Position numbers and translations under genes: made by a program. From positions 1-24,000 of the forward strand of contig DASUFK010000015.1 in the NCBI GenBank assembly GCA_036274615.1: 24,000 nucleotides of DNA, given 5' to 3'. The notes under the pieces are model-generated. The model did no database searches. It was not told the DNA's origin and saw only the letters and a program-made list of their open reading frames with translations. Shown here piece by piece: positions 1-21,840 of the stretch (position 1 is its first letter; each line of letters starts with the position of its first letter). The DNA is from Gammaproteobacteria bacterium. Lineage in GTDB: Bacteria; Pseudomonadota; Gammaproteobacteria; Steroidobacterales; Rariloculaceae.

Positions 1-1096
1 AGTCACCTGTGCACCTGACGACGCGTATCCCCGCCGCTGCGTATGCTTCGGTGAACGTGTCGAACTTCTCATTCACTAACGCTTTGTACGGCAGAAGGAA
101 TGCCGCCTTCTTTCCGGCTGTGACGGCACGGATTGCCGCGAGCTCGCCGACAAACGTTTTCCCCGAACTCGTCGGCGCGACAACCAGAAGGGACTCGTCG
201 CTAAGAATGCGATGCGTGTTCACCGCTTTGATCTGTAGTTCGTTAAGACCGGACGGGAACCGTTTACGCCAATCGCTGAGAATCTCTGGCCCAAATCCGT
301 AAACGGCCAATTCGTCGATTGCGCCCGAGATGGGCTGCACGTCGAACTCGGGAAAAGCCGCGAGAAATTTCGGTCCGCGTCGCAACCTCGGAATGCTCAG
401 ACCGCCCTCGACATGGTTGATCAGTACCGGTGTTTGAACTTCTCCAATCCTCTCCGCCGCGGTTCTAGTGCGCGTCAGAACTTCATCGAAAGCACTAGAC
501 AGCGTTACCGTCTCGTCATCCCAATTGCACAACACGTCAATCAAGGCGTGCGTTAGCAGTCCGTGCCCGGTCCCCGGCTGCTCCCACGCGACCTCGTGAG
601 CGGCGGCCGCAGCTATAAGGATGCGACCCTTCCCGGTGATCAATTCGTACGGGCTCGTGGGATTTCGTGCGACGGCCGCGCCTTCAAACACGCGCGCCGG
701 GGCTGCGCCGCTGAAGCAACAATCTAGGATGCAGAGGATCGCGCGCGCTCGACAACTGCGAAATCTCTCCGCGAGTTCCTCCATACCGATGGAAGTTGCG
801 GCAAGGCCCGCGCTATTTGTGTCGTAGGCCACAAGCCGATGATTCGGCGTGCCGTGACCAGCGAACGACAGGACAACAACGTCGTCCGCTTCCGCGTCGC
901 CCAAAGACGTATCAATTGCATACCGGATCGCGGCGGCGGTTGCATCGTCGTCCAGGAGAGCGGTGGCGTCGATGTCATCAAAGGTATCGCTGAACAACGC
1001 CCACAGAGCCAGCGCATCGCGGACGGCGCCCGTCAGTTCGCGGATGCCCGGATCCTCGTGCCTATTTACGCCGACGAACGTTGCGTGGATTTTCAT
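1..1096 (-). CDS. Partial CDS (C-terminus lies beyond the left window edge): N-terminal caspase-like peptidase C14 domain fused to a Ski2/Hel308-like SF2 helicase
   Basis: Absent from the supplied ORF track because it has no stop inside the window. My reverse-complement translation starts at ATG 1096-1094, with an in-frame TAA two codons upstream. It reads MKIHATFVGVNRHEDPGIRELTGAVRDALALW...DDVVVLSFAGHGTPNHRLVAYD...RARAILCILDCCFSGAAP, giving the caspase dyad context of His in AGHG and Cys in DCCFSG. It continues ...LNELQIKAVNTHRILSDESLLVVAPTSSGKTFVGELAAIRAVTAGKKAAFLLPYKALVNEKFDTFTEAYAAAGIRVVRCTGD, covering a Q-motif-like stretch, Walker A/motif I, motif Ia and the TGD motif Ib. The frame stays open to position 2. 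Confidence 0.8.
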   Translation of the reverse strand, partial: MKIHATFVGVNRHEDPGIRELTGAVRDALALWALFSDTFDDIDATALLDDDATAAAIRYAIDTSLGDAEADDVVVLSFAGHGTPNHRLVAYDTNSAGLAATSIGMEELAERFRSCRARAILCILDCCFSGAAPARVFEGAAVARNPTSPYELITGKGRILIAAAAAHEVAWEQPGTGHGLLTHALIDVLCNWDDETVTLSSAFDEVLTRTRTAAERIGEVQTPVLINHVEGGLSIPRLRRGPKFLAAFPEFDVQPISGAIDELAVYGFGPEILSDWRKRFPSGLNELQIKAVNTHRILSDESLLVVAPTSSGKTFVGELAAIRAVTAGKKAAFLLPYKALVNEKFDTFTEAYAAAGIRVVRCTGD

Positions 1097-2046: not shown

Positions 2047-4650
2047 TCATTCGCTCACCAGCGCCGGCCAGTTGAGCACGACTCCGATCGCCGCTCGATC
2101 CGTTCCGCCCTGATCCTGTCGAACGGCCATCATGAAACGTTGGCCGTCGGCGGAGTCCGCACTGCTGCTACTGGCAGTGGGAGGCAGCACGAGCCGCTGA
2201 GGAACGCCGCTCTCGAAAGCCGTGCCGCTCGCATCGACGGGCACGGCGAAAAGCGTCGGGGCTGACGGAAAATGGTTGAACAGGATCTCTTCGTCGTCGC
2301 GCCACAGAGGCCAATTGCCCCCGTTCCTCGAAACCTGCCACCTGCCGTCTCCCAACGCGGGCTCGCCGTCGGCCTCCGCAAGGCGAAAAGGACGAACGTA
2401 GACTTCCGAGACGCCCGTCTCCAACGACACGTAGGCCAGCCAACGCATGTCGGGTGAGAAGACGCCCGCCCACTCGTTGAAGCTCTCGCCGAGCAGCAGA
2501 GTCCGTTTGCCGTCCTGCACGCCCAAGGCCCATTGGTCGTACCCCGTCTTCGGAGCGTTCTCCACGTGATAGAGCAGGAACCGCCCGTCGCGCGACCAAC
2601 TGGTCACGAAGTGCCTAACGCCTGACTCCTTCAAGAGCTCCTGCGCGTCGCCGAGGCCGGAGGCGGCTTTCGTAAATACCGTGTCGCCGAGACGCCCGGC
2701 CGCATACGCGATGCGGCTGCCGTCCGGAGACCACACACCCGGCGAGTAGACGTCACTCCCAAACGTTAGACGAGCGCGCCGGCCGCTCGCGAAGTCGAGC
2801 GTCCAGAGATCCCCAGGCTCACCGTACGGGGAGTCCTTCACGACGGCGCGCTTGCCGTCGGGCGACAACGCAACGCTCGTGTCGGGACCCGGCGGTCCGA
2901 ACGTGCCGAGCGTCTGCCCTTGCCGGTCGAGCCAAGTGAGCTGAAAGGTGCCGCTCGGGGCCGCGGCGCGATAAGCAAGGGTCCCGCCCTCGGAGACCGC
3001 AAACACCGCGGTGGAGTACCAGGTGACCGCCACGTTCTCGGCCACCGGCACCGGCGCGCCCGCGAGCTCGAGGCTGCGATCGTCAAACCGCTGCGCCATC
3101 AGCGTGTTCGCGCGCACGAAGAAGACGTGCCCATTCGCGTAAACCGCCGGCACGGTGCTCTGCAAGAGCCGTTGACGCGATTGTTGACCGGGCTCGATGC
3201 CGAGGGAGCCGACGTAGGTGCCTTGGACTTCCTCCGGTCCGGAGCGGAAGTACAGGAAGTGCGTGCCGTCGGCGAGGAACGTGGGCCACGTGTGATGGAA
3301 CTCCGTGGCGGAGAGGTCGACCTCCGTCACCGCCGTCGCGGCGCCGCCGGTCTCCGGCACTTTCCAGATCGGCCCGCCGGTGCCGCCGCCCCACGCGCCC
3401 ACCAAGAGGTCGCCGTTTCGGTTCCAGCTGCCGAATCCGCCCGCGTCGTTGGGCAGAGTGCTCAGCGTTTCCGGCGGTCCGCCGGCAAGAGCCACTTTCT
3501 TGATCTCACGTCCGACGCTGAAGCCGAGGTAGCGGCCGTCGGGAGACCAGAACGGTGTCGATCCGCCCTCGGTGCCCGGCAACCGCCGCCACTCCGGGGC
3601 ACCGAAATCGCGAATCCAGAGCGCCCCGCCCACGACGAACACGAGCTGGCGGCCGTCCGGCGACATCGCCAGAGCGCCGCCGGTGACACCTTCCGGAATC
3701 GAGGCCTCGAAGCGGCTCACCGAGCCCCGCGCCGCCGGCCACGACGCCCAACCGCCGAGCCCGACCGCGATCAACGCCATTACCGCGGCCAACGCTTGCC
3801 AGGCACGAACCGAACGAGCGGGCGCCGGCGCCGGTCGTTCGGCCGCGATCCAGGTGAGCGCATGCTTGATCTCGCGCGCCGATTGCCAGCGTTTCTCGGG
3901 ATCCTTCTCGAGGCAGGTTCGCACGATGGCTGCGAGGCCGGGCGGTAGCGGCGGCTGCAGGTCGGTCAGCGGCCGGGGCTCTTCCTTGAGGATGGACGCA
4001 ACGAGGCCGGTTTGCGTGTCGCCGACGAACGGTCTTCTGCCCGCGAGCAACTCGTAGAGCACGACTCCGAACGCGAACAAGTCGCTGCGCGCGTCCGCAT
4101 CCCGCCCTTCGATTTGCTCCGGCGACATGTAGGGCAGCGTGCCCAGCACGGCACCGTCAATCGTTCGGCCGGTAACTGCGGCAGCGACCTCGGTGTTCTC
4201 CCCGGCTGCGCCCGCGGGGCGTTCGATCTTCGCGAGACCGAAGTCGAGAACCTTCACGCCGTTGTGCGCGAGCAGAATGTTTTCGGGCTTGAGATCCCGG
4301 TGGACGATGCCTCGCCGGTGGGCGGCGTCGAGCGCATCCAGAATCTGTTCGGCCAATACGAGCGCTTGGGCGCGCGGCACCGGTCCCCGCAGCCGCTCGC
4401 CCTCGACGTACTCCATCACCAGGTAATCCGGGCCGACGTCGTAGAGCGAGCACACGTGCGGATGATTCAACGCCGCGATGGCTCGAGCCTCGCGCTCGAA
4501 GCGGTCACTGAAGCGGGTGTCGCTGGTCTTGATCGCGACCAAGCGGTCGAGGCGCGTGTCTCGCGCCCTCCACACTTGGCCCATGCCGCCGGCGCCAACC
4601 AAAGCCAGAATTTCGTAGGGTCCGAGCTTCGTTCCGGCCTGGAGGATCAT
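2047..4650 (-). CDS. Ser/Thr protein kinase with one TM segment and C-terminal PD40/TolB-like beta-propeller repeats
   Basis: Track ORF 2047..4716. Kinase motifs are GAGGMGQVWRA, VAIK, HRDLKPENIL, DFGLA and YMSPEQ. A hydrophobic segment AVMALIAVGLGGW follows. Repeated motifs include SPDGRQLVF, WSPDGRYLGF, SPDGKRAVV, WSPDGSRIAYA and SRDGRFLLY. I prefer the start at ATG 4650 (MILQAGTKLGPYEI), because kinase domains begin close to the G-loop. 4716 is the alternative start. Confidence 0.85.
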   Translation of the reverse strand: MILQAGTKLGPYEILALVGAGGMGQVWRARDTRLDRLVAIKTSDTRFSDRFEREARAIAALNHPHVCSLYDVGPDYLVMEYVEGERLRGPVPRAQALVLAEQILDALDAAHRRGIVHRDLKPENILLAHNGVKVLDFGLAKIERPAGAAGENTEVAAAVTGRTIDGAVLGTLPYMSPEQIEGRDADARSDLFAFGVVLYELLAGRRPFVGDTQTGLVASILKEEPRPLTDLQPPLPPGLAAIVRTCLEKDPEKRWQSAREIKHALTWIAAERPAPAPARSVRAWQALAAVMALIAVGLGGWASWPAARGSVSRFEASIPEGVTGGALAMSPDGRQLVFVVGGALWIRDFGAPEWRRLPGTEGGSTPFWSPDGRYLGFSVGREIKKVALAGGPPETLSTLPNDAGGFGSWNRNGDLLVGAWGGGTGGPIWKVPETGGAATAVTEVDLSATEFHHTWPTFLADGTHFLYFRSGPEEVQGTYVGSLGIEPGQQSRQRLLQSTVPAVYANGHVFFVRANTLMAQRFDDRSLELAGAPVPVAENVAVTWYSTAVFAVSEGGTLAYRAAAPSGTFQLTWLDRQGQTLGTFGPPGPDTSVALSPDGKRAVVKDSPYGEPGDLWTLDFASGRRARLTFGSDVYSPGVWSPDGSRIAYAAGRLGDTVFTKAASGLGDAQELLKESGVRHFVTSWSRDGRFLLYHVENAPKTGYDQWALGVQDGKRTLLLGESFNEWAGVFSPDMRWLAYVSLETGVSEVYVRPFRLAEADGEPALGDGRWQVSRNGGNWPLWRDDEEILFNHFPSAPTLFAVPVDASGTAFESGVPQRLVLPPTASSSSADSADGQRFMMAVRQDQGGTDRAAIGVVLNWPALVSE

Positions 4651-4796
4651 AGGAGTGGCGCAATGATAGCCGGTGAACCGTCGTCGAGGTGATGCCATTC
4701 GCGGTCCATTCCGCACACGGGTCCCAACCCATCGCGACCTCTGGCAGGATCGCGCTTATAGTCCTTGCGCGAAGCGTCGTCTTCAGAGACAACACC

Positions 4797-5840
4797 ATGC
4801 ACCGGAGCCGCGTCGCCGCCGTTGGCAGTTTGATCGTCACCGCCCTTGCGCTCGTTGCCCAACCACAGGAATCGAACGCGCAGCCGGCGGGCGCTGAAGC
4901 GCCTCCCTACCGCGCTCCGCGAACGTCCTGGGGCGACCCCGATCTCGCTGGTAAATGGCCGAGCACGAACATGGCCGGTGTGCCGCTCCAGCGCCCCGAA
5001 TCGTTCGGCACCCGCAACGTGCTCAACGACGCCGAGTTCGCCGAGCGTCAGGCGCAAGCCGCCCGTCAGGTGGCGGAGGACAACGCCGACTTCGATTTCG
5101 AGCACCCGAGTGTGCCGTTCGGTCAAATCGGCGGCGGGCAGTCGCCGCCGCAGCACTGGTTCGAGCGCGGCGAGACGCAGCGCCAGGCGTCGTTGATCGT
5201 CGACCCGCCGGACGGCCGCTTACCCGCGCTCACCGCCGCCGCGCAGAAGCGCGAGGCGGACCGGCGCAGCAACACGCGCACGCCTCCGGCGTCGTACACC
5301 GATTTCTCGCTCTACGAGCGGTGTATCACGCGGGGCCTCATCGGCTCCGTGATGCCGGGGGGCTACAACAACGGCAATCAGATCTTCCAGGCGCCGGGCT
5401 ACGTGACCATCGTGAACGAGATGATCCACGAGTCCCGCGTCGTGCCGCTCGACGGCCGGCCGTACGCGAGCCCGGCGATTCGAAGCTTCCTCGGCGACTC
5501 GCGCGGCCGGTGGGAGGGCGACACGCTGGTGGTGGAGACGAAGAACGTCGCCGATCGCCCGGGTCTCGGCATGAACGACACCGGCGCGAGCCCGGCGCTC
5601 ACGATCACCGAGCGCTTCACGCGAACCGGCGACGCCACGTTGCGCTACCGGGTCACCGTTGACGACCCGATGACCTGGACAGCACCCTTTACGCTGCAGT
5701 TCACTCTCGACCGGGACGACGACTACGGTATGTTCGAGTACGCGTGCCACGAGGGTAACCACGCGCTGCGCAACATCCTGAGCGGCGCCCGTGCGAGCGA
5801 GCGCGCCAACGGGGACGCGGCCCCGCGGCCGCTGCGCTGA
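4797..5840 (+). CDS. Secreted protein of unknown function, large-domain family member P1 (WEGDTLVVET / ITERF / EYACHEGN motifs)
   Basis: Track ORF 4689..5840. Internal ATG 4797 gives the signal-like N-terminus MHRSRVAAVGSLIVTALALVAQPQESNAQ. It is homologous by eye to the products of 5913..6962, 17146..18003 and the C-terminal two-thirds of 21841..23022. Confidence 0.75.
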   Translation: MHRSRVAAVGSLIVTALALVAQPQESNAQPAGAEAPPYRAPRTSWGDPDLAGKWPSTNMAGVPLQRPESFGTRNVLNDAEFAERQAQAARQVAEDNADFDFEHPSVPFGQIGGGQSPPQHWFERGETQRQASLIVDPPDGRLPALTAAAQKREADRRSNTRTPPASYTDFSLYERCITRGLIGSVMPGGYNNGNQIFQAPGYVTIVNEMIHESRVVPLDGRPYASPAIRSFLGDSRGRWEGDTLVVETKNVADRPGLGMNDTGASPALTITERFTRTGDATLRYRVTVDDPMTWTAPFTLQFTLDRDDDYGMFEYACHEGNHALRNILSGARASERANGDAAPRPLR

Positions 5841-5912
5841 TCCGGACAAATCTCAATAGATCGTTGCCTCTGACTTCTGCACCATATAGGCCGCCCTTTC
5901 AGGAGGATTGAC

Positions 5913-6962
5913 GTGCCCACAACGAAAACAACCCCGGCCGACGGGGGTCGACTGGCTATGTATCTGCCCGGTGCTGCAGCGATGCGTGCGCTGGCCTGCC
6001 TCGTCGCGCTCGCCTGGAGCGTCGGCGCTTCGGCGCAATGGGAGCCCAGGCCCGATCCCAAGCTGCCGCGGGACAAGGACGGCAAGGTGCTCATGGACGC
6101 TCCCACGCCCAAAACGGCGGCCGGCAAACCGGATTTCTCCGGCCTCTGGATGCGGGTGAACAGCGGACCGCCGCCGGGCAACGGCGGACGTGGCGGCCGC
6201 GGGGGCGGCGGGGGCGGCGGTAACGGAGGCGGCGGCGGCGCTGGCGGCGGACCCGGCGGCGGCGGTGGTGCCAGAGGCGGAGCCGGTGGCGGTGGCGGCG
6301 GCGTCTCGCTCGAGCCCGCGCAGGCACCGTTCCCCTACGATCCGAAGGGCCCGCCGGTCGCGGCGTTCTTCGAGGCCGGTCAGAACATCGAAGGCGGTCT
6401 CCCCTACACGCCGTGGGCCAAGGAGCTCAGGGACAAGCGCTTCGCCGCGCGCGCGAAGGACAACCCGGATGCCAATTGCATGCCGATGGGGTTTCTACAA
6501 TTTCACCAGCAGCCCCAACCGCGCATGATCATCCAAACCGACAAGATGATCCTGATCGAGTACGAAGCCAACTACGGCATCCGCCACATCTACTTGGACG
6601 GACGCAAGCTGCCGCCGCAGGGCGAGCCGCAGCCGTGGTGGTACGGCTATTCGGTGGGTCACTGGGAAGGCGACGACCTGGTAGTCGAGACGAACAACCT
6701 GCGCGGTGCCGACGAGGACAGCCCCTACGACGCCTGGCTCGACGTGAACGGCAGCCCGTACTCGCGCGAGGCGAAGATCACGGAGCGCTTCCGCCGGCCC
6801 GAGCTCGGCCATTTGCAGATCGACTTCACGATCGAAGATCCGAAGGCGTACACCAAACCGTGGACCGTGCGTGTCGATCAGCGCCTCCTGCCGGACCAGG
6901 AGCTGATCGAGTTCGTCTGCAACGAAAATCAACAATTCGGCAATAGAATCAAGCTGGATTAG
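5913..6962 (+). CDS. Secreted protein of unknown function, large-domain family member P2, with a Gly-rich low-complexity insert
   Basis: GTG start at 5913 with AGGAGG at 5901-5906. Signal-like segment: AMRALACLVALAWSVGASAQ. Family motifs present: PDFSGLW, NCMPMGF, DGRKLPP, GHWEGDDLVVETNNL, ITERFRR, EDPKAYTKPWTV and EFVCNEN. Confidence 0.8.
   Translation: MPTTKTTPADGGRLAMYLPGAAAMRALACLVALAWSVGASAQWEPRPDPKLPRDKDGKVLMDAPTPKTAAGKPDFSGLWMRVNSGPPPGNGGRGGRGGGGGGGNGGGGGAGGGPGGGGGARGGAGGGGGGVSLEPAQAPFPYDPKGPPVAAFFEAGQNIEGGLPYTPWAKELRDKRFAARAKDNPDANCMPMGFLQFHQQPQPRMIIQTDKMILIEYEANYGIRHIYLDGRKLPPQGEPQPWWYGYSVGHWEGDDLVVETNNLRGADEDSPYDAWLDVNGSPYSREAKITERFRRPELGHLQIDFTIEDPKAYTKPWTVRVDQRLLPDQELIEFVCNENQQFGNRIKLD
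6165..6302 (+). repeat. GGN-codon low-complexity tract encoding ~46 aa of Gly-rich (RGG-like) sequence inside P2
   Basis: It encodes GPPPGNGGRGGRGGGGGGGNGGGGGAGGGPGGGGGARGGAGGGGGG. The three paralogs have no counterpart at this position. Confidence 0.9.
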
Positions 6963-6972
6963 GAGCACGTAA

Positions 6973-7494
6973 GTGAACCCGCAAGCACACGTAAACAGGA
7001 ACAGCCGTATCCGCGGCCGCATCAAGCTCGGAGCGCTCACGAGCGTCGCCGTCGCCGCGGTGGCCGCATCGCTACCGCTCGCCGCCCATCATTCTTTCTC
7101 CGCGGAGTTCGATGGGACCAAGGAGATCAAGGCAACGGGAGCCCTCAAGAAACTGGATTGGCAGAATCCGCACGGCTGGATTCACCTCACCGTCACCGAG
7201 ATCTGCGAGCGCACCGGTACTCGCGGCCCCAACAATCCCAACGCCGCCGAAGAAGAGTGGAAGTGCCGCTCGCCCGCCGGCGGCGAGAAGGACGCGGATT
7301 GGGCGTTCGAGATCGGCAGCCCCAACGGACTGATGCGTCAGGGCTGGACGCGAAACTCGCTCAAGGCGGGCGACGTGGTCACGGTTCTCGGCTCACGGGC
7401 GCGCGACGGCAGCACGAACTCGAACGCGCGCTCCGTCACGACGGCCGACGGCAAGCGCCTGTTTGCCGGGTCGAGCCAAGACACCACGCCGTAA
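6973..7494 (+). CDS. Small secreted DUF6152-like protein (copy A)
   Basis: GTG start at 6973 with AGGAG at 6961-6965. The signal peptide ends ...ASLPLAA, followed by HHSFSAEFDGTKEIKATGALKKLDWQNPHGWIHL. I remember the pattern AHHSF..FD...G.V....W.NPH.W as the DUF6152 family. The start lies 11 nt after the P2 stop. Confidence 0.8.
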   Translation: MNPQAHVNRNSRIRGRIKLGALTSVAVAAVAASLPLAAHHSFSAEFDGTKEIKATGALKKLDWQNPHGWIHLTVTEICERTGTRGPNNPNAAEEEWKCRSPAGGEKDADWAFEIGSPNGLMRQGWTRNSLKAGDVVTVLGSRARDGSTNSNARSVTTADGKRLFAGSSQDTTP

Positions 7495-7513
7495 CCGACA
7501 TCGGCAAAGCGTA

Positions 7514-7547
7514 AACGCGGTGCGCGCCGCTCAGCGCGCACCGCGTT
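7514..7547. terminator. GC-rich hairpin between convergent genes (14-bp perfect stem, 6-nt loop); possible bidirectional terminator
   Basis: AACGCGGTGCGCGC-CGCTCA-GCGCGCACCGCGTT. It lies 20 nt after the stop at 7494 and 80 nt from the convergent stop at 7628. The T tract is weak: only TT on the + side and TTT on the - side. Confidence 0.45.
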
Positions 7548-7627
7548 CCCACGACACCGGTCACACGGGTCCCAACGTTCCGGCCGAGCGGCGGACCACT
7601 CGCGACCTCGCATCTCGGCTTTTCGCG

Positions 7628-7852
7628 TCACGGCGGCCGTTCCCTCAACTCCTCTATCAGCCGATCTCGCTCCTCGATCTGCAGGTGCAGCGCCGACTCG
7701 AACTCTACGAGTAGCGCTTCGGCTTGAGCCGTGTCATGTCCGCGGCCGCGGAGACTCTCGATCAGCCCCCGCTGCTTGGCGACGTGTGCCTGACCTTCGG
7801 TCACGTGGCGCTCGGCCAGCGCCAGATGGTCGGCGATCGTTTGCTTGTCCAT
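7628..7852 (-). CDS. Small (74 aa) predicted coiled-coil protein, unknown function
   Basis: This is the C-terminal part of track ORF 7628..8269, starting at ATG 7852: MDKQTIADHLALAERHVTEGQAHVAKQRGLIESLRGRGHDTAQAEALLVEFESALHLQIEERDRLIEELRERPP. The upstream part of the track ORF is Arg/Ser/Ala-rich and looks non-coding. Confidence 0.55.
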   Translation of the reverse strand: MDKQTIADHLALAERHVTEGQAHVAKQRGLIESLRGRGHDTAQAEALLVEFESALHLQIEERDRLIEELRERPP

Positions 7853-7898
7853 GCCCACTGCCAAGCAAACTTGATGCCACGCCGCCCGGATCGGCTGC

Positions 7899-9794
7899 AT
7901 GTGCGCCGCACGTCTTGCCCGGCCGAATGCGGCCCGCCACCATGGATGCTCGACCCGAGACGGCGGAGCAGTGCTAGGTAGATCGTTCCATCCGTTGCGC
8001 GCGCCCGCCGACACCTCGGCGGCGCGGACACTACGAGTGCCGTTCGAGGAGCACGTCGAGCTGCTGCGGGCATTCTTGGGCCACCGGGCCGAAGCCGTCG
8101 ACAACATCCAGGGCGTGCTGAACGCGCAGCGAAAGCCGCCGCAGTATCTGCGCGACGCGTCCATGCTGGCGCGGCTGCTCGACGAGTGCTTCTTCACGCT
8201 GCCGGGCCCCGGCGACCGATGGGCGCTCGCGCGCCAGTTGGACGAAGCGCACTGGGCGAGCGGCTTCAAGCCCCGTCACACGCCGGGCGAGCACAACGAC
8301 CTCATCGACCCCGCCGAAATGATGACGCGCGGCTTTCACTTGTGGCAGCAAACCCGCTGGCCGGGAAGCGCCGGCCGAGCGCGTTGGGCCGAGACCTTGT
8401 TCAACCTGTATCTCCTGCGGCGGTTGATGCTGCTCTGCATGCGAATCTGGGATGCGGGCGCGGCGGAGGCCGGCACCCGGCTCGCGCAAATCCAGGGCGT
8501 GCTCGACGAGCTGTGGAGAACGGCGCCGGCCGATCAGCCGGTATTCGTGCGCGATGCGCGCTGGCTGTTCCCCCTGGCGCAGAGCCCCACCACCGACGAG
8601 CTCGGCGGCTACTTCGTGGTGGCGCAACACATCGCGGACAGCCTGTCCTACGAGCACCGCCTCGAGATCGACAAGGCCAGTGTTCGAATGGCAGGCGGGC
8701 ACCTCACCTCGCAGCTGCGCCACGTCTCCACGCAGAAGGGCGTGTCGATCCACGACCACGCGCTGATCCTCATCACCCGCCGCTCCAACGCGCTCGATCT
8801 CGCCACGCTGCTCCAGGGTCTCGTGCCGCTGCTCGAGGCTTACGAGCGGGCCGCTGCAGGCGGCGACGCCGACAAGCGTCTCGAGCTCGCCGGCGCGATC
8901 TGTCAGGGCATCTCTCCGGATCCGGAGCTGTTCGTCAATCGCCTCGACCTGCTCGGCCCTTACGGCATGATCGAGTATCTATTCATCGCGGCGGATCGTG
9001 ACGGGCACGCCGCTTACACGCCGTTGGGACGACGGCATCTGCAACTGCTCGAGGAGTACGCGGCGCGGCTTGCGCGTGTAGTCGAGCCGTTGCACGCAGA
9101 CTGCGCGCGCTTCAAGCCGGTTTCGGGCGCCTATTCGCCCTACGGCACGTTGTACGGTTTCTCGTCGCGGCTCCTGGAGCACATGGCGCTCAAGAGCCTC
9201 GCGCCCGACGCCGCCACCGGCTTCAGCCTCGAGGACGTCTTCAGCGACGGCGGGGCGGATAAGCTCGCGTGGGTGAGCGGCTGGCGCAAGCTGCCGCACA
9301 TCCCGCGCGACGTGCAGAAGCTCTTCGACTACCCGCAAGAATTCGCGGAGCAGATCTTCGGCCGCATCGAGGCCGCGCTGCGCAAGCGCGTGGCCGGCGG
9401 CGGCGCGAGCGCCGCCGCGAGAGCGGGCCGTCTGCTGCTCGTGGCCGAGGACGAGCCGGTGTCGGGCTCGCAGCACTCGTCGATTCCGGATCTCGCGCCA
9501 CGATTCTTTCTGTCGTCCGACCGGCGCCTCGTGGACGACGGCAAGGCCGAGCCTTACGGCCAGCGGGAGCTGCTTCACAGCAGGACCGAGGGCGAATTCA
9601 TCGTGAGCTACGCGACGCCGGGCGGCTGGCTCGCGATCACCAAGGACGCTCTCACCGACGTCATCGGCGCGGGGCTCGAAGCGAAGGTCCGCCTGCCGCG
9701 CGCGGCCGCCGAGACGCTGCGCTCGATGTGCCTCGGGCTCGCCGAGTTTCCGGAGACTTCCGCGCAGTCGCAGGAGGTGGGGCAGCCGGTCTAG
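7899..9794 (+). CDS. Large cytoplasmic protein of unknown function (no family recognised)
   Basis: 631-aa ORF with balanced composition (K, F, Y, W, I present) and GC-rich third positions from about 8037 onward. Overlapping minus-strand ORFs are Arg-rich artefacts. The start is uncertain: codons between 7899 and 8036 have poor third-position GC, so GTG 8037 (VPFEEHVELL) or GTG 7971 are alternatives. Confidence 0.7.
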   Translation: MCAARLARPNAARHHGCSTRDGGAVLGRSFHPLRAPADTSAARTLRVPFEEHVELLRAFLGHRAEAVDNIQGVLNAQRKPPQYLRDASMLARLLDECFFTLPGPGDRWALARQLDEAHWASGFKPRHTPGEHNDLIDPAEMMTRGFHLWQQTRWPGSAGRARWAETLFNLYLLRRLMLLCMRIWDAGAAEAGTRLAQIQGVLDELWRTAPADQPVFVRDARWLFPLAQSPTTDELGGYFVVAQHIADSLSYEHRLEIDKASVRMAGGHLTSQLRHVSTQKGVSIHDHALILITRRSNALDLATLLQGLVPLLEAYERAAAGGDADKRLELAGAICQGISPDPELFVNRLDLLGPYGMIEYLFIAADRDGHAAYTPLGRRHLQLLEEYAARLARVVEPLHADCARFKPVSGAYSPYGTLYGFSSRLLEHMALKSLAPDAATGFSLEDVFSDGGADKLAWVSGWRKLPHIPRDVQKLFDYPQEFAEQIFGRIEAALRKRVAGGGASAAARAGRLLLVAEDEPVSGSQHSSIPDLAPRFFLSSDRRLVDDGKAEPYGQRELLHSRTEGEFIVSYATPGGWLAITKDALTDVIGAGLEAKVRLPRAAAETLRSMCLGLAEFPETSAQSQEVGQPV

Positions 9795-9868: not shown

Positions 9869-12004
9869 GTGAGTCGAGCAGAGACCAAGGAAGGCACCTA
9901 CCGGCGGTTCCGCCCGCTCGCCATCGTGCTCGCGCTCGCGATCTTCGGAGCGCTCTCTGCGTCCGCCGCAGACGCGCAGGCGCTCGGCTTTCGGCTCGAC
10001 GAAGGCGGCAACATCAACAGCTTCACCCGCGACGGTGACGTGGCCGCGCACCTGCTGCTGCGCTCGGGCGATGAGCCGAGAATCCTCGTCGCGTTCCCGG
10101 CCGGCGACAGCGGCGTGGGACTGTGGTTCGCGAAGACCGCCGAGCCGGTGGAGTGGCGGCTCGTGGCGGCACCTCGCGCGATCACGGTCATGGACGGCAG
10201 CGGCCGTCCGCTGCACGGTATCGAAGCGCAAGTCGAAACGGACGCGCCGGCGCTCCGCGTGGAGCGCGCGGTGTTGTCGTCGATCCGCGTGCTGCGCGAC
10301 TTCGAGCTCCTGCGCACGGTGCCGGACGAAGTCCTCACGCCGCCCGTGGCGAGTGGCTCGCGTCTCACCTGGGCCCGCGACCGGCTGGACGGCGCGGCCG
10401 GATACCGGTTGACGCTGGAAGCGGAGGGCGACGCCGCGGTCGGCGCGGATGGCATCCGCCGCGGCGCCGCCGGCCGGCTGCGGTTCACGGTGACGGCGTT
10501 GACGGGCGAGCCGCCGCTCACGCCGATCGACGGCGCGGCGCTGCTCGACCGGCGGGCCGCGGTCGACCCGCGGTCGCGCCACGTGCTCGAGTTCCTCGCC
10601 TATCGCGAGAAGTACCTCGCGGGCTCGTGGCGCTTCGACACCTACTTCGGGCGCGACACGCTGATCTCGCTGATGCTGCTCGAGCCCGCGCTGCAGCCCG
10701 GCGCGATCGGCGCCGGCATTCGCTCGGTGCTCGAGCGGCTCGCGCCGAACGGCGAAGTGGCGCACGAGGAAGACATCGGCGAGCAAGCGGTGCTGCGCAA
10801 CGCGAAGGAAGGCCGCGGCCTCGTCGACACGCCGATCTACGACTACGGCATGGTCGACGACGACTTCATGCTCGCGCCGCTGATCGCGCGTTGGCTGCTC
10901 GACGGCGGCACGTCGCGCGCTCGCGCCGACGATTTTCTCGCGAGCGGCCTGGCGTCCGGAGCGCCGGCGGCGGAAGCGCTCGCGCGCAATTTCGAATGGG
11001 TGGTGCGCCGCAGCGCGGCCTTCGCGGCCGAGCCCGTGGCGGCCAACCTCGTCGGCATCAAGCCGAATCGCCGCACCGGCAACTGGCGCGACAGCGACGA
11101 CGGGCTCGGCGGCGGAACCTATCCCTACGACGTCAACGTGGCCCTCGTGCCGGCCGCGCTCGAGGCGATCGATCGACTCTTCGCGAGCGGGCTGCTCGAC
11201 GCGTATCTATCGAACGAGCAACGCCGCGTTCTCTCGCAAGCGGGCGCGCAGCGGCGGATCTGGGCGGCGAGCGCGGCGCCGTTCTTTCGCGTCGCCCTGT
11301 CCGCCGGCGCGGCACGCTCCGCGATCGCCGCGTACGCGGCCGCGGCCGGAGTGAGCGCGACGGACGGGCTCGCGTCGATCGGCGACGACGGCGTCGAGCT
11401 CGACGCGCTATCGCTCGACGCGAACGGCGAGCCCGTGCCGGTGCTGCACTCGGACGGCGGCTTCACGCTGCTGTTCGGCGAGCCCGCGCCCGCGCAGGTG
11501 GAGCGCGCCGCGGCAGCGCTGCTCCACCCGTTTCCCGCGGGCCTGCTCACGCCCGTGGGCATGGTCGTCGCGAACCCGGTGTTCGCCGATCCCGAGGTGC
11601 AAGCGCGGTTCTCGAGCGCGGCGTACCACGGCACCGTGGTGTGGTCGTGGCAGCAGGCGTTGATGGCCGCCGGCCTCGAGAGGCAGCTCGCGCGCAGGGA
11701 CTTGCCGGCCGGCTTGCGCGCGCGGCTGCGCGACGCACGCGCGCGGCTCTGGGCCGCGATCGGCGCCGCCGCGGCGCTGCGCTCGTCGGAGCTCTGGTCG
11801 TGGTCGTTCGCGAACGGCTGCTATCGGCCGGAGCCGTTCGGCGCCCGCCGCACGGACGTCGACGAGTCGAACGCCGCGCAGCTCTGGAGCACCGTGTTCC
11901 TGGCGCTCGACGCCGTCAGCGCTCCGGCGCGGCGGGCGCGGGTTCCGGAGCCCTGCCGGGACCGGGATCGGCGGCCGCCGGCAGCTGCGCGCTCTCCACC
12001 TTGA
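9869..12004 (+). CDS. Secreted six-hairpin (alpha/alpha)6 glycosidase-like protein (amylo-alpha-1,6-glucosidase/GDE_C-like motifs)
   Basis: In frame with track ORF 9269..12004. I place the start at GTG 9869, with AAGGAG at 9853-9858. This gives the signal-like N-terminus VSRAETKEGTYRRFRPLAIVLALAIFGALSASAADAQA. WRFDTYFGRDTLISLMLL and AAYHGTVVWSWQQ resemble the FGRD and YHNGxVWPW motifs of GDE_C/GH15-like barrels, as I remember them. Confidence 0.7.
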   Translation: MSRAETKEGTYRRFRPLAIVLALAIFGALSASAADAQALGFRLDEGGNINSFTRDGDVAAHLLLRSGDEPRILVAFPAGDSGVGLWFAKTAEPVEWRLVAAPRAITVMDGSGRPLHGIEAQVETDAPALRVERAVLSSIRVLRDFELLRTVPDEVLTPPVASGSRLTWARDRLDGAAGYRLTLEAEGDAAVGADGIRRGAAGRLRFTVTALTGEPPLTPIDGAALLDRRAAVDPRSRHVLEFLAYREKYLAGSWRFDTYFGRDTLISLMLLEPALQPGAIGAGIRSVLERLAPNGEVAHEEDIGEQAVLRNAKEGRGLVDTPIYDYGMVDDDFMLAPLIARWLLDGGTSRARADDFLASGLASGAPAAEALARNFEWVVRRSAAFAAEPVAANLVGIKPNRRTGNWRDSDDGLGGGTYPYDVNVALVPAALEAIDRLFASGLLDAYLSNEQRRVLSQAGAQRRIWAASAAPFFRVALSAGAARSAIAAYAAAAGVSATDGLASIGDDGVELDALSLDANGEPVPVLHSDGGFTLLFGEPAPAQVERAAAALLHPFPAGLLTPVGMVVANPVFADPEVQARFSSAAYHGTVVWSWQQALMAAGLERQLARRDLPAGLRARLRDARARLWAAIGAAAALRSSELWSWSFANGCYRPEPFGARRTDVDESNAAQLWSTVFLALDAVSAPARRARVPEPCRDRDRRPPAAARSPP

Positions 12005-12520: not shown

Positions 12521-13174
12521 TTGACCCGATTCGTCGACGACCAAGGCCGCTTGGACTTTGCCGCGCTCGCGGCGGACCGGCGCAGCCTCGACGAGCACAT
12601 CGCCTACGTGGAGCGCGTGAGCCCGGCCAGCGCGCCGGAGCTCTTCCCGCGCCGCGCCGACGTGCTCGCCTATCACCTGAACGCTTACAACGCGTTGGCC
12701 ATGCGCGGCGTCATCGACGCCGGCATCACCGAAGGCTTCAAGGGTTTTCTCGGGCGGCAGCTGTTCTTCCGGCTGCGCAAGGTGGTGGTGGGCGGACGGC
12801 GGATGTCGTTGTCGGCGTACGAGAACGACGTGATTCGGCCGCTCGGCGAGCCGCGCGTGCACTTCGCGCTCAACTGCATGGCGCGCAGCTGCCCGCGGCT
12901 GCCGCAAGCGGCGTTCAGCGCAAACGAGCTCGACGCGCAGCTCGAGGCCGCGGCCCGCGAGTTCGTGAACGACCCGCGCAACGTGCGCGTCGACGCGGCG
13001 GCGCGCGAGGTGTGGCTGTCGAGCATCTTCGCCTTCTACACGAAGGACTTCGCGCCCGACGGCAAGCACGCGAGCCTGATCGACTACGTGAACCGCTACC
13101 GCGACGCGCCCGTGAACCGAGAATTCGCCGTGCGCTTCATTCCCTACGACTGGTCGCTCAACCGGCAGCCTTGA
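12521..13174 (+). CDS. DUF547 domain protein
   Basis: TTG start at 12521, the most upstream start codon in the frame. AYHLNAYNALAMRGV, VHFALNCMARSCPRL and EVWLSSIFAFY match the DUF547 pattern I remember (HFALNC...SCP). Confidence 0.75.
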   Translation: MTRFVDDQGRLDFAALAADRRSLDEHIAYVERVSPASAPELFPRRADVLAYHLNAYNALAMRGVIDAGITEGFKGFLGRQLFFRLRKVVVGGRRMSLSAYENDVIRPLGEPRVHFALNCMARSCPRLPQAAFSANELDAQLEAAAREFVNDPRNVRVDAAAREVWLSSIFAFYTKDFAPDGKHASLIDYVNRYRDAPVNREFAVRFIPYDWSLNRQP

Positions 13175-13178
13175 CGGC

Positions 13179-14093
13179 TCAGCGGTCGAGCTCGCTGCAC
13201 GACGAGCCGTACTTGAAGCAGCTGTAGCAGCGATGGTGGTGCAGCATCACGCGCTTCGTCATGCTCTCCGCCAGCGCGCCGCCGAGGTCGTAGGCGGCGT
13301 CGTCGTCGACGAGCGTGCAGGCGTACACCCGCATGCGACCCTCCTTCTTCACCACCATCTTCGAGAACGCGCACATGAAGGCGCGGCGGCTGTCCGCGGA
13401 CTGATACGTCGTCATGCAGTGCTCGGTGATCGCGGGCACGCGCGGGCTTGCGCCCGGCAAGAGGAAGTCGGGAAAGGCCACGATGCCGGCTGTCGGCGGC
13501 AGCCCGTGCTCCGTGAGCAGGCCGGCGTAGGCCGCCGTTACCGCGGCCGCGTCCTCGTTCCGGTCCATCTGCCTCGCGATCGAGACCCTGAAGCCGAGCG
13601 CGTGCAGCTCCTCGAGCGCCTGCCAGGATTGCGCGAAGGTGCCGGCGCCGCGGCCCGCTTCGTGCCGCTCGCGGCTCGGATAATCGATGCTCACGCGGAA
13701 CGCGATCGGGTGCGGCTGCTCGCGCAGCGAGGCCACCTGTCGCAGGCGCTTGAGCAGCGCGTCGGTGCCGTTGGTCAATACGAGGCACGGGCGAGCGTCC
13801 GACGCGTAGCGAAGGATGCTCACGAATTCCTTCACGACGAACGGCTCGCCGCCCGTGAACGACAGCTGCTCCACGCCGAGCGCCACGGCCTCGTCGATGA
13901 ACGGCTTCGCGTCCGCGAGCGTGATGCGGCCGAGGCGCGCATCGCCGGGATTCGAGCCCTCGAGGCAGAACGGGCACGCCAGGTTGCAGGCGGTGCCCGT
14001 GTGGAACCAGAGCTCGCGCAGCGCGTGCGGCTCGATGTAGCCGCGCGGGTCGCCGCCGGCCGTGAAGAGCAGCGAGCTCGGCTCCGCGCTCAT
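13179..14093 (-). CDS. Radical SAM enzyme with a Cys-rich C-terminal tail (resembles the TIGR04167/ArsS-type Cys-rich/selenodomain rSAM group)
   Basis: This is the C-terminal 304 aa of track ORF 13179..14963, starting at ATG 14093. It has the CxxxCxxC cluster CNLACPFC, the motif SFTGGEPF, and the tail HHHRCYSCFKYGSSCSELDR. Its ATG overlaps the upstream gene's stop as ATGA. Confidence 0.8.
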   Translation of the reverse strand: MSAEPSSLLFTAGGDPRGYIEPHALRELWFHTGTACNLACPFCLEGSNPGDARLGRITLADAKPFIDEAVALGVEQLSFTGGEPFVVKEFVSILRYASDARPCLVLTNGTDALLKRLRQVASLREQPHPIAFRVSIDYPSRERHEAGRGAGTFAQSWQALEELHALGFRVSIARQMDRNEDAAAVTAAYAGLLTEHGLPPTAGIVAFPDFLLPGASPRVPAITEHCMTTYQSADSRRAFMCAFSKMVVKKEGRMRVYACTLVDDDAAYDLGGALAESMTKRVMLHHHRCYSCFKYGSSCSELDR

Positions 14094-14839
14094 GGCTCCG
14101 GATCGCCGCCCGAGGTGAGGGTTGCCCGATAGCTCGCGGCGAGCGCCGCGGGCTCTCCGCCGAGCGCGTAGCGCAGCGCGAGCCAGCGATTGTGCAGCGT
14201 GCGCGCGAGCCAGCCGTCGCGTTCCCAGCGCCGCGTCGCCACGGCGAGCGCGCGCGGCAGCACGCGGAACCTGCCGCGCGCGCGCAGGCCGCGCACGAGC
14301 CGCACTTCCTCGAACAGCGGCTGCGCGGCGAATCCGCCGAGCTCGAGGTACACGTCGCGGCGCGCGAAGATGCCCTGGTCGCCGTAGACCATGCCGCCGC
14401 AGCGAATCCTGAGCGCCACGAGTCGCGCGAGCAGGCGCTTGTACCAGCTGCTCGGCCCTTGGAACGCGAACCGGAAGCAGCCGCTCTCGGCGCCGTGTCG
14501 AACGGCGGACGCGATGAGCTCCACCGCGTCCCTCGCCGGCTCGGCGTCGGCGTGCAGGAACCACAGCACCGGGGCCGTGGCCTCGAGCGCGCCCGCGTGG
14601 AGCTGCGCGCCGCGGTTCGGCGCGGTCTCGACGTACTTGCAGCCGTACGAGCGGCACACGGCCTCCGCCGCGGCGGCACTGCGTCCCGACACCACGACGA
14701 CCTCCGCGGGCCGTTGCCGCGCGAGCCGCGCGAGCAGCGTGCCGAGCGCGTGCTCCTCGCCGAGCACCGGGATCACCACGGCCACGCCGGTCGAAGCGGC
14801 GGCGGGCTCGGTGCCTTCCTGTGGGACGCCGGCGCTCAT
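14090..14839 (-). CDS. GT2-like transferase of the type I remember as TIGR04283 (rSAM/selenodomain-associated transferase 2)
   Basis: ATG at 14839. Motifs: VAVVIPVLGEE, NRGAQLHAGA, WFLHADAEP, VYGDQGIFARR and VATRRWERDGW. ATGA overlaps occur at both ends (14836-14839 and 14090-14093). Confidence 0.8.
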   Translation of the reverse strand: MSAGVPQEGTEPAAASTGVAVVIPVLGEEHALGTLLARLARQRPAEVVVVSGRSAAAAEAVCRSYGCKYVETAPNRGAQLHAGALEATAPVLWFLHADAEPARDAVELIASAVRHGAESGCFRFAFQGPSSWYKRLLARLVALRIRCGGMVYGDQGIFARRDVYLELGGFAAQPLFEEVRLVRGLRARGRFRVLPRALAVATRRWERDGWLARTLHNRWLALRYALGGEPAALAASYRATLTSGGDPEP

Positions 14840-15585
14840 TGCACGCTGTCCGGCTGCGCGTCGCCCGTGAGCGCGTCGCCGGGCAGCGGCGCCTGCGACT
14901 CGGCCGCGAGACGCTCGCGCAAGATGCGCGTGGAGCGGCGCGTGACGAGCACGGTGAGCGCAACCGTGGATGCGAAACCCACCGCGAGCATCGTGTCCGC
15001 CGCCCAGGCCGGAGCGCCGTCCGCGCTCGTGAGCGTGGTGAGGCTCTTCGCGAGCGTGCCCGTGTAGACGTACAGCACGATGGCCGGCAGCATGCCGAGC
15101 CACGACGCCACCGCGTAGTCGCGAAAGCGCGCGCCCGTGATGCTCAAGGCGTAGTTCAAGAGGTTGTAGGGGATCAGCGGCGACAGGCGCGCGAGCAGCA
15201 CGATCGCGAAGCCGTCATGGTGCAGCGCCGCTGCCAGCGCGCTGAACTTGGGCGACGCGGCCACCCGCTGCGTCACCCAGTCGCGCGCGACGAATCGCCC
15301 CACGAAGAATGCGGCCGCCGCCCCGAGCATGCTGCCGAGCGAGGTGAGCGCCACGCCGAGCGGCAAACCGAACAGGAAGCCCGCGGCGAGCGTGAGGATC
15401 GAGCCGGGGACCAGGAGCACGGCGGCCAACACGTACACGGCGAGGAAGATCACGGCCGCGGCCATGCGGTGGTGCTGCGCCCACGTGGCGGCGCCGGCGA
15501 TCCACGATGCGAGTGGCGGGTGGAAGGCCACCGCGGCGATCGCCGCCAGCACGAGCACGGCCACGAGCGCGTGCCGCTTGTTCAC
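14836..15585 (-). CDS. TVP38/TMEM64 (DedA-related, SNARE-associated domain) integral membrane protein
   Basis: GTG at 15585 forms a GTGA overlap with the upstream stop. The sequence has multiple hydrophobic segments: LVPGSILTLAAGFLFGLPLGVALTSLGSMLGAAAAFFVGRFVARDWV...ARLSPLIPYNLLNYALSIT. Confidence 0.8.
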   Translation of the reverse strand: MNKRHALVAVLVLAAIAAVAFHPPLASWIAGAATWAQHHRMAAAVIFLAVYVLAAVLLVPGSILTLAAGFLFGLPLGVALTSLGSMLGAAAAFFVGRFVARDWVTQRVAASPKFSALAAALHHDGFAIVLLARLSPLIPYNLLNYALSITGARFRDYAVASWLGMLPAIVLYVYTGTLAKSLTTLTSADGAPAWAADTMLAVGFASTVALTVLVTRRSTRILRERLAAESQAPLPGDALTGDAQPDSVQ

Positions 15586-16262
15586 GAGCGGAGATCCGGC
15601 TGCACGTCGAGCCAGCGCGCGAGCGCGCGGCGCGCCGGCCGCGAATCGCCGGCGAGGTCGGTCCGCAGGGCGGCGAGATCGTCGAGCGTGTCCACGTCCT
15701 TGAGGCGCGGCAGCGTGGCGGTGTGCGCGCCGGCCGCCTCGCAGGCCGCTTGCAGCGAGTCGCACAGGCCGCTCGTGCTCCACGGCAGCGCCGCGAGCGG
15801 CGGCCAGCGACCGCGCACGCCCATCAGTACCACGCCGCCGTCGGGCGCCGGGCCGAGCACGGCGTCGTGATCGTCGAGCGCGTGCGCCGCGCGCGCGAGG
15901 TACGGTACGTCGAGAGTCGGGCAGTCGATGCCGATGAAGAGCTGCCGCTCGAAGCCGCGCTCGAGCAGGTCGTCGTTGACGTGATGGATGCGCTCGCCGA
16001 GATTGCCGCCGCGCTGCACCACTACGACGTCCGCCGGAAGCGCATCGGCCCGCTCGTCGGCCGCCGACGGCGCCACGCACACGGGGCCCGGCCAGGCCGC
16101 GAGATCCTCGCGCACGCAGTCGAGGAGGCGCTGCGCCGCCTGGGTGGCTCGCCGAGCGCCGATGTGCTCGGCTAGCCGCCGCTTCGAGCGCGCGGCCGAC
16201 TTCATCATCAGAACCACGCAGCAGCCGCTGTCCCGGACGCCGCGCGGCGACGGTATTCCCAT
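15582..16262 (-). CDS. DUF2064 protein of the type I remember as TIGR04282 (rSAM/selenodomain-associated transferase 1)
   Basis: This is the C-terminal part of track ORF 15582..16514. Motifs: VVLMMKSAARSKRRLAEHIG (compare the FAKxPxxGxVKTRLA pattern), NLGERI, IGIDCPTL, VLGPAPDGGVVLMG, LPWSTS and DVDTLDDL. The start at ATG 16262 is tentative. The track ORF upstream of it merely reads through the palindrome. Confidence 0.7.
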   Translation of the reverse strand: MGIPSPRGVRDSGCCVVLMMKSAARSKRRLAEHIGARRATQAAQRLLDCVREDLAAWPGPVCVAPSAADERADALPADVVVVQRGGNLGERIHHVNDDLLERGFERQLFIGIDCPTLDVPYLARAAHALDDHDAVLGPAPDGGVVLMGVRGRWPPLAALPWSTSGLCDSLQAACEAAGAHTATLPRLKDVDTLDDLAALRTDLAGDSRPARRALARWLDVQPDLRS

Positions 16263-18419: not shown

Positions 18420-18522
18420 GGCAGCTCTCTCCGGAATCTTGCGCGCATAGCTGTAGCACGCCGCCGGCCGCTCGTCCATGGAAGGGAGAGCACCCGCCCG
18501 CGGCGAGCCTGCCCCACGAGCC

Positions 18523-21739: not shown

Positions 21740-21840
21740 GCGGGACCGAGTGCGAACCGTGCGGTGCGCACGAACGTGTGGCGCGCCTCGCGAGCGCCGG
21801 CTTAGACTGGCAACGAGTCAGGAGCGAGGGGGAAAGCGCA

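Follow-up and report, generated by a model that had tools for sequence, protein, structure and literature searches.

A multi-copy exported protein family linked to DUF6152 suggests a periplasmic module with a candidate N-terminal histidine site

Why should one bacterial neighbourhood hold four related, seemingly exported proteins of no described function, with small partner domains beside three of them? This question is raised by a 24,000-nucleotide stretch of DNA from a soil gammaproteobacterium (positions 1 to 24,000 of contig DASUFK010000015.1, assembly GCA_036274615.1), which was analysed at its full length and is called the window throughout. The original prediction, made from the sequence alone, had seen here a recurrent two-part module, consisting of a large domain in four paralogs, which we denote A to D, and a small domain resembling DUF6152, which occurs in two separate genes, s1 and s2, and at the N-terminus of D (Table 1). 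To judge from its sequence, the large domain is exported through Sec and resides in the periplasm (or is secreted), and its association with DUF6152 domains whose mature N-terminus would start with His-His suggests a new periplasmic metal-dependent module. What is new so far is a family awaiting characterisation and a hypothesis about it that can be tested, rather than a demonstrated mechanism.

All four proposed copies of the large domain are present, the last of them as the C-terminal part of D. Their similarity is formally significant, with pairwise BLASTP E values between 1.6e-4 and 3.9e-13 over 107-179 residues (nominal database size 1e6), and a four-way MAFFT alignment recovers the shared blocks that had been listed for them, namely P[DN].xGxW, CxPxG, DGR, GxSxGxWEGDxLVVET, ERF and DPxx[YFW]T. 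C189, R224, G245, S247, G249, E291, R292, D309, P310 and C336 (B numbering) are among the invariant columns. One early and one late cysteine are common to A-D and are conserved, practically without exception, in 172 homologues outside this genome; as had been proposed, they would form a disulfide. Further conserved motifs are PRTPWGDPDLxGxW at the N-terminal and EYACHEGN at the C-terminal end of the domain. The predicted export of all members is consistent with every translation, each of which reads as a hydrophobic N-terminus with an AxA-like end. In A, the signal peptide is followed by PDLAGKW and by the cysteines C176 and C317, and A carries both of two conserved histidines, H211 (codon 5427-5429) and H318 (codon 5748-5750), which we refer to as the cis histidines. 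B, whose start is preceded by AGGAGG, has a signal peptide, PDFSGLW, C189 and C336, with Tyr and Asn in the two histidine columns; C has FLGTW, C136 and C275 and lacks both histidines. The fused protein D consists of a signal peptide, His42-His43 (21964-21969), a DUF6152 domain of predicted oligonucleotide/oligosaccharide-binding (OB) fold (~21970-22260), a linker and the large domain (~22303-23019), which contains C242 and C379 and no cis histidine. As a peculiarity of B, a Gly-rich low-complexity insert of ~42 residues (GNGGRGGRGGGGGGGNGGGGGAGGGPGGGGGARGGAGGGGGG, 6177-6302) follows PDFSGLW; it is missing from the other paralogs, and B orthologues vary in length at this insert (291-364 amino acids).

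The assignment of the small domains to DUF6152 is confirmed by Pfam, since PF19649 exceeds its gathering score of 27 bits in all three: with 90.9 bits (E 5.9e-26) in 6973-7494, with 83.7 bits (E 1e-23) in the open reading frame (ORF) 18000-18479 on the reverse strand, and with 69.0 bits (E 3.7e-19) in the N-terminus of ORF 21733-23022, which comprises D. All three domains also show the motifs found throughout the family, that is, His-His after the signal peptide, D..K, TG, NPH, W, E and L.R.GW. In s1, the signal peptide is followed by His39-His40 (codons 7087-7092), with NPH encoded at 7165-7173; the corresponding positions in s2 are His23-His24 (codons 18348-18353) and 18267-18275. In a non-redundant set of 128 DUF6152 sequences, taken from unrelated loci, 127 have (A/G/S)-His-His directly behind the hydrophobic core of the signal peptide, the residue before the pair being Ala in 117, Gly in 6 and Ser in 4, and the pair begins 25 or 26 residues (extremes 24-27) ahead of NPH. 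NPH itself is present in 128/128, a count that has to be read against the way the set was collected, by searching for [NS]PH. Following the AxA rule, signal peptidase should cleave immediately before the pair, so that the mature protein would begin with His-His. As a side observation, s1 carries an insertion of ~35 residues with two cysteines in its OB domain (TEICERTGTRGPNNPNAAEEEWKCRSPAGGEKDADWAFE, ~7190-7310), which s2 and D lack, and the OB domain of D has a separate cysteine pair, C88 and C126. The system had been thought to be without functional description, and literature searches indeed returned no paper that mentions DUF6152 or PF19649 and none on the large domain; for DUF6152, they yielded no described function, structure or partner. 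To the bare family entry we can add the predicted OB fold, the invariant His-His behind the signal peptide and, with regard to the large domain, a linkage that is nearly obligate and a fused form.

Within the window, the linkage takes three forms. The stop codon of B, TAG, is followed by 10 nt that include GGAG and then by the GTG start of s1 (6973); the stop of s2 overlaps the ATG of C on the reverse strand; and in D the two domains are fused. The tight spacing and the ATGA coupling described originally are therefore both there, but the claim that DUF6152 accompanies the large domain each time holds for B, C and D and not for A, for which no separate DUF6152 exists, the order of the locus being A-B-DUF6152. 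For a survey beyond the window, hidden Markov models of both domains were run on six-frame ORFs of fetched loci, and domains were counted as neighbours if fused or at most 400 bp apart. In 81 loci anchored on the large domain, which contain 160 large and 31 DUF6152 domains, 27 of the 31 DUF6152 domains were neighbours of a large domain, compared to 27 of the 160 large domains (~17%) with a DUF6152 neighbour. In the reverse direction, 80 metagenome loci anchored on DUF6152 hold 102 such domains, of which 25 lie on contigs too short for a decision; among the 77 decidable ones, a large domain was adjacent or fused in 60 and lay farther off in 12, and 5, with flanks of at least 1.2 kb, had none. 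On account of these counts from both sides, we regard the linkage as near-obligate for DUF6152 and as facultative for the large domain. The term two-part module is thus apt for DUF6152, which nearly always comes with a large domain, ~80-90% of its genes being adjacent to one or fused ahead of it, but not for the large domain, 133 of whose 160 copies come without DUF6152 and which forms tandem arrays by itself.

Adjacency and fusion of the two domains recur in hundreds of loci from metagenomes and metagenome-assembled genomes (MAGs), so that their co-occurrence is not confined to this genome. Three outcomes had been named in advance that would have spoken against the original prediction, insignificant similarity of the paralogs, membership of the large domain in a well-characterised family and lack of co-occurrence with DUF6152 elsewhere, and in each case we found the opposite. 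When homologues are assigned to their nearest paralog in the window, A-like domains mostly stand alone (113/127 in genome loci), and the B-, C- and D-like ones are those with a partner. PF19649 is present in each of the 120 best homologues of D, which cover 88-98% of it, indicating that the fusion is a stable architecture. In every fusion seen, be it in the loci anchored on either domain or among the D homologues, DUF6152 comes first, an order in which its N-terminus stays free.

The large domain itself belongs to a very sizeable family. When the representatives of 1.84 billion clusters, built at 50% identity, were searched exhaustively with a profile, 22,518 matched with E<=1e-3, 12,263 with E<=1e-10 and 2,052 with E<=1e-30. 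In word-indexed searches, homologues numbered more than 4,900 for B, more than 4,200 for D and more than 6,100 when a profile of all four paralogs was used. With each species represented by one genome, a scan confirmed at least 586 places, several of which can share one chromosome. The best 80 places fall mostly into Vicinamibacterales and Bryobacterales (Acidobacteriota), and the remainder includes Gammaproteobacteria, one Sphingomonadaceae MAG and one Bordetella-labelled MAG. No catalytic family had been recognised for the large domain, and this has not changed: neither Pfam nor NCBIfam matches the paralogs of the window, and Pfam matches none of 98 relatives. Sequence searches of the PDB with large-domain profiles of 4 and 134 sequences and with a DUF6152 profile gave nothing credible, the best match (E = 0.14) being confined to the signal-peptide region. 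In ten unusually long family members, Pfam detected sporadic Glyoxalase or methyltransferase extensions, which are probably fused gene calls. The density of paralogs, taken originally as a peculiarity of this neighbourhood, turned out to be nothing of the kind, as clustering is the rule in the family, with the 160 copies mentioned above lying in 81 loci of ~12 kb. In individual cases, six large-domain genes follow each other in a Vicinamibacterales chromosome (L057 3043-10033), five large domains are interleaved with two DUF6152 genes in a Bryobacterales MAG (L015 3752-9359), and six large domains occur with four DUF6152 domains in a Proteobacteria MAG locus (L079). The large domain, multi-copy and arranged in tandem arrays in dominant soil phyla, is among the bigger protein families without an entry in Pfam, NCBIfam or the PDB, and tens of thousands of genes would gain an annotation from any function given to it.

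Structure prediction offers a first view of both domains. An AlphaFold2 model of D, built from a 100-sequence alignment, reached a mean predicted local distance difference test (pLDDT) score of 84.3 and a predicted template modelling (pTM) score of 0.78. Its N-domain has five strands and one short helix, and a Foldseek search of the PDB returned OB folds for it (SSB, PriB, the anticodon-binding domain of LysRS and TiaS) with E values of ~2e-4 to 5e-3; on this model, DUF6152 is an OB fold. The C-domain comprises three short strands at GxW (168-189), helices (190-252) and eight antiparallel strands (257-369), and for this barrel Foldseek found nothing in the PDB better than ~7e-3. A, modelled alone, came out weaker than D (pLDDT 64, with 75-92 in the beta core). 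Its best PDB matches were FABP-like calycins, led by SAHS (5xn9, E 2.3e-3) and followed by CRABP2, UnaG and NanoLuc (E to 4e-2), with template modelling (TM) scores of 0.41-0.52 when normalised to the target. The large domain thus appears to be a helix-lidded antiparallel barrel of calycin/FABP-like topology, albeit with weak matches. In these models it would share with the calycins (FABP, CRABP2, SAHS, UnaG, NanoLuc and lipocalins) the GxW first strand, a helical lid and an antiparallel meander, but it is about twice their size, exported, equipped with the putative invariant disulfide and marked by the two terminal motifs given above. The strand order implies that the turn with E208 and H211 should lie on the lid side of the barrel, where the C-terminal CHE should be found as well, held by the putative disulfide.

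Some more specific relationships of the barrel found no support. As regards homology to FABPs, the family profile, compared with human CRABP2 by hhalign, reached a probability of 0.65% with a 10-residue match at EGDT, and no lipocalin or FABP family of Pfam matched any of 98 large-domain members at E<=1. A carrier of the LolA/LolB type was not supported either, the LolA matches to the A model (E 0.05-0.07, probability 0.2, TM 0.12-0.22) and those of nitrophorin being far weaker than the calycin matches. In concept, the nearest analogue of the stand-alone type is ZinT/YodA, a periplasmic protein whose N-terminus is rich in His and which joins an exported calycin-like domain and a helical part with His-based binding of metal. 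We take this resemblance as a lead only, ZinT being neither among the top Foldseek matches nor matched by Pfam in the 98 members.

A difference between large domains with and without a partner concerns histidines. We aligned 97 large domains from loci without DUF6152 and 75 that are adjacent or fused to it. Both sets keep the two cysteines, R214, E272-R273 of ERF, D290-P291 and the GxSxGxWEGDTLVV block (A numbering). The cis histidines are conserved in the stand-alone set only, the one in EMI-H (H211 of A) in 82/97 and the one in C-H-EGN (H318 of A) in 89/97. Both are present together in 79/97 stand-alone domains, compared to 11/75 DUF6152-associated ones and none of 10 fused ones. For the histidine of CHE alone, the contrast is 89/97 versus 12/75 (Fisher p = 1.5e-25, uncorrected for phylogeny). 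The window repeats the pattern, with both histidines in A and neither in B, C and D. Beyond the two histidines, the stand-alone clade conserves E208, R214, D219 and E319. Where the barrel has its pair, the partner with its His-His is mostly missing, and this reciprocity provides a concrete and cheap experimental handle.

Based on these observations, we tentatively favour a reading in which the exported barrel holds a ligand and a histidine pair at its lid, supplied either by the barrel itself or by the N-terminus of a partner, forms what is probably a metal site. In detail, the barrel would hold a small molecule and have its working site at the lid or portal, made of the conserved carboxylates (E208 and E319 in A), the invariant arginine (R214) and the histidine pair, and the invariant disulfide would tie the C-terminal tail of the large domain to the lid. 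In the stand-alone type, represented by A, the pair would be provided in cis by EMI-H and C-H-EGN. In the DUF6152-associated types, represented by B, C and D, the cis histidines are gone, and signal-peptide cleavage would instead bare His-His on DUF6152, which might dock on the barrel, or be fused ahead of it, and so provide the pair in trans. This would also account for DUF6152 always coming first in fusions, because the mature N-terminus would then begin with His-His. The outcome could be an N-terminal-histidine ('histidine-brace-like') metal site that binds the barrel ligand or modifies it chemically, with oxidation, hydrolysis and the capture of a metal or ligand as candidate jobs.

The comparison with the histidine brace is instructive in both directions. 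All known histidine-brace proteins are exported, and it is signal-peptide cleavage that bares their N-terminal histidine (PMC10952591). In the brace, copper is chelated in a T-shaped arrangement, to which His1 contributes its pi-N and the N-terminal NH2, and a second histidine its tau-N (PMC10952591). YcnI, a DUF1775 protein, has a brace-like copper site and often neighbours copper genes (PMC8424229). Like the members of this class, such as the lytic polysaccharide monooxygenases AA9/AA10, CopC, PmoF1 and YcnI, DUF6152 combines a signal peptide with an invariant histidine behind it in the 127 of 128 sequences noted above, the same sequence signature that led to the copper histidine-brace proteins, here on an OB fold with a barrel partner. 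It has further invariant His, Asp and Glu residues, so that the second histidine of the pair, the histidine of NPH and a conserved Asp or Glu are candidate second ligands. In contrast to the brace proteins, which are beta-sandwiches (Ig-, fibronectin- or cupredoxin-like), DUF6152 is modelled as an OB fold; it has two adjacent N-terminal histidines, and its partner is a barrel protein, not a polysaccharide or a transporter. If DUF6152 were a brace, it would therefore probably be one on a new scaffold. To our knowledge, the OB fold has not been linked to histidine-brace chemistry before, and our literature search found no paper joining the two. We also know of no system that combines an OB-fold protein of the N-terminal-histidine kind with a lidded barrel, split or fused, and for this reason rate the module outside every described kind.

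Several observations weigh against the metal-site reading. The anticorrelation between cis histidines and DUF6152 lies largely between clades, A-like versus B/C/D-like, and may go back to a small number of evolutionary events; inside the A-like clade, the contrast is weaker, with both histidines in 11/20 paired and 79/91 stand-alone domains (p = 0.003). Paired domains, moreover, are not uniformly devoid of histidines, as the first is kept in 27/75 and both in the 11/75 mentioned before. In the model of D, confidence at the N-terminal His-His segment is moderate, at ~66. Finally, CopC and YcnI have copper genes nearby (CopD, YcnJ, PCuAC), but in a Pfam census of 148 genes directly flanking the modules, and in six annotated contexts, no family of copper, zinc or nickel homeostasis recurs. 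A bolder form of the reading goes further still and proposes a class of exported metalloproteins with a split active site, in which the His-His of the OB fold, as a copper site of the brace type or one for another metal, is inserted into the portal of a calycin-like barrel, and stand-alone barrels hold the pair in cis. This form we consider unlikely. If it were true, the family of ~22,500 clusters would constitute a major uncharted set of oxidative or metal-dependent enzymes of the periplasm among the Acidobacteriota and Proteobacteria of soils; if it is wrong, the family still poses a well-defined, experimentally approachable problem of the bacterial envelope.

Two other explanations seem unlikely. 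One holds that the module serves periplasmic metal trafficking or scavenging, with DUF6152 as a copper, zinc or nickel metallochaperone in the manner of CopC, YcnI, CusF or ZinT and the large domain as its docking partner or client. The invariant His-His behind the signal peptide would fit such a role, as would the brace-like sites of CopC and YcnI, which are tied to copper transport, and a HupE/UreJ-type transporter lies two genes from a DUF6152 gene in one related locus. CusF is a small periplasmic OB-fold chaperone that binds Cu(I)/Ag(I) through one His, two Met and one Trp of its barrel and works with the CusCBA pump. DUF6152 would share its size, compartment and fold, but carries its histidines at the N-terminus and has no CusCBA pump beside it; at E<=1, Pfam finds only DUF6152 itself and weak SH3_2, DUF4131 and FeoA matches, with no CusF, CopC or ZinT signal in any member, and the alignment contains no Met-rich motif. 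Besides the lack of recurring metal genes in the flanks, the partner is nearly always the large domain and not a transporter, and several paralogous pairs per genome would be unusual for a chaperone.

The other explanation, to which we give the same low standing, dispenses with metal altogether: the large domain would be a periplasmic carrier or solubiliser of hydrophobic molecules, comparable to FABPs, lipocalins or LolA, DUF6152 a non-catalytic OB adaptor, and the histidines would serve for hydrogen bonding to the ligand or for protein contacts. It draws on the FABP-like and weaker LolA and nitrophorin matches in Foldseek, on the GxW first strand and the helical lid of the models, and on the invariant arginine, which has a counterpart in carboxylate-binding FABPs. 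It also accords with the frequent exported catabolic neighbours in the census, in which metallo-beta-lactamase folds (8), the propellers of pyrroloquinoline quinone (PQQ) dehydrogenases (7) and glyoxalase folds (5) lead, joined by occasional esterases, lactonases and amidohydrolases. The resemblance in structure is weak, however, a sequence relationship is absent, and this explanation leaves unaccounted for why the mature N-terminus should start with His-His in 127/128 sequences and why DUF6152 comes first in fusions.

Somewhat less likely again is that the large domain is an enzyme in its own right, a hydrolase, lyase or cyclase with His, Glu and Arg as acid-base catalysts, of which B, C and D would be inactive or re-purposed versions and DUF6152 an unrelated accessory. 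The conservation of E208, H211, R214, D219, H318 and E319 in the stand-alone clade could be understood in this way, and enzymes of calycin fold do exist, NanoLuc being among the Foldseek matches. But no enzyme family was matched in Pfam, NCBIfam or the PDB, both histidines are dispensable in whole clades that are otherwise strongly conserved, and it is to exactly those clades that DUF6152 is tightly linked. That the family is an artefact of chance similarity, mis-called ORFs or decaying paralogs is extremely improbable: a G+C content of ~68%, as in the window, does yield many spurious ORFs, but such an origin is refuted by the thousands of conserved homologues, and it is equally at odds with the above-threshold Pfam scores, the codon-position GC bias that backs the reading frames of the module genes, the confident model of D and the identical NCBI proteins for four of the six module genes (A, s1, s2 and D), which come from a 36,981-nt contig of 'MAG TPA: Gammaproteobacteria bacterium'.

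As to the surroundings of the module (Table 1), the gene map was drawn with a codon-position log-odds gene finder and Pfam/NCBIfam scans. The flanking two-component system and acyltransferase, on which the idea of an envelope system had partly been based, do exist, in the form of a LytS-type kinase, a LytTR regulator and an Acyl_transf_3 protein, but they are not conserved partners elsewhere, and a dedicated envelope system that includes the flanking genes finds no support in their conservation. In the 148 flanking genes and the six annotated contexts, which differ from each other and agree with the census, we found no conserved third partner; no family exceeds ~5%. Since there is no conserved neighbour, we place the Ser/Thr kinase, the two-component system and the acyltransferase outside the module.

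Table 1. Genes and other features mapped in the window
Feature	Position	Strand	Length (amino acids)	Accession	Remarks
Ser/Thr protein kinase fused to PD40/beta-propeller repeats	2047-4716	-			gene finder and family scans
A, large-domain paralog	4797-5840	+	347	HEX5045637.1	NCBI name 'hypothetical protein'; stand-alone type
B, large-domain paralog	5913-6962	+	349		paired with DUF6152 protein s1
s1, DUF6152 protein	6973-7494	+	173	HEX5045639.1	NCBI name 'DUF6152 family protein'
Unannotated ORF	8037-9794	+	~585-631		strong coding signal
Unannotated ORF	9869-12004	+	~711		signal peptide; FDTYFGRDTLISL motif; strong coding signal
DUF547	12521-13174	+			family scan
Radical-SAM protein with Cys-rich C-terminus	13179-14093	-			ArsS (TIGR04167) weak, 45 bits versus cut-off 300
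TIGR04283 'arsenosugar biosynthesis glycosyltransferase'	14090-14785	-			199 bits versus cut-off 182
DedA/VTT membrane protein	14836-15585	-			family scan
TIGR04282/DUF2064 transferase	15582-16262	-			122 bits, slightly under cut-off 134
Tat-signal protein	16405-17133				gene map
C, large-domain paralog	17146-18003	-	285		short type
s2, DUF6152 protein	18000-18419	-	139	HEX5045651.1	NCBI name 'DUF6152 family protein'
Acyl_transf_3 acyltransferase	18559-19707	-			family scan
LytTR response regulator and LytS-type histidine kinase	19812-21739	-			family scan
D, fused DUF6152 and large domain	21841-23022	+	393	HEX5045655.1	NCBI name 'DUF6152 family protein'
Histidine phosphatase	23058-23702	+			His_Phos_1-like by NCBIfam; directly 3' of D

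Some neighbours do recur in close relatives. A homologue of the Ser/Thr kinase (L001 11551-14358) adjoins a pair of B ortholog and DUF6152 in a 580-kb metagenome contig, seen in this close relative only, and the adjacency is probably synteny among close relatives and not a functional link. At ~5 kb from the nearest relative of D (P0186) there are two pairs in which DUF6152 precedes a large domain, and the gene after this relative is again the histidine phosphatase (L162 4493-5134), which is synteny by descent. In a related Gammaproteobacteria MAG (L163 11655-14958), a DUF6152 gene is followed by one for a 401-residue protein showing faint NHL repeats and then by one for a HupE/UreJ-type membrane protein. 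The latter, which resembles nickel/cobalt transporters, is the sole metal-transport neighbour seen, and the DUF6152 gene there has no recognisable large domain next to it.

The remaining features of the window concern the module less directly. Neither of the two unannotated ORFs was matched by Pfam or NCBIfam. The cluster at 12521-16262, comprising DUF547, radical-SAM, TIGR04283, DedA and TIGR04282 proteins, is unconnected to the module. A scan of 4500-7900 for promoters and terminators was uninformative, and an ORF at 23019-23711, on the strand opposite to the histidine phosphatase, is probably spurious. The first 2,000 nucleotides (1-2000) have a G+C content of 55-59%, compared to ~68% elsewhere, and contain a small ORF of the HTH/MqsA-like antitoxin type at 1294-1827; this part, which forms the edge of the window, may be of foreign or mobile origin.

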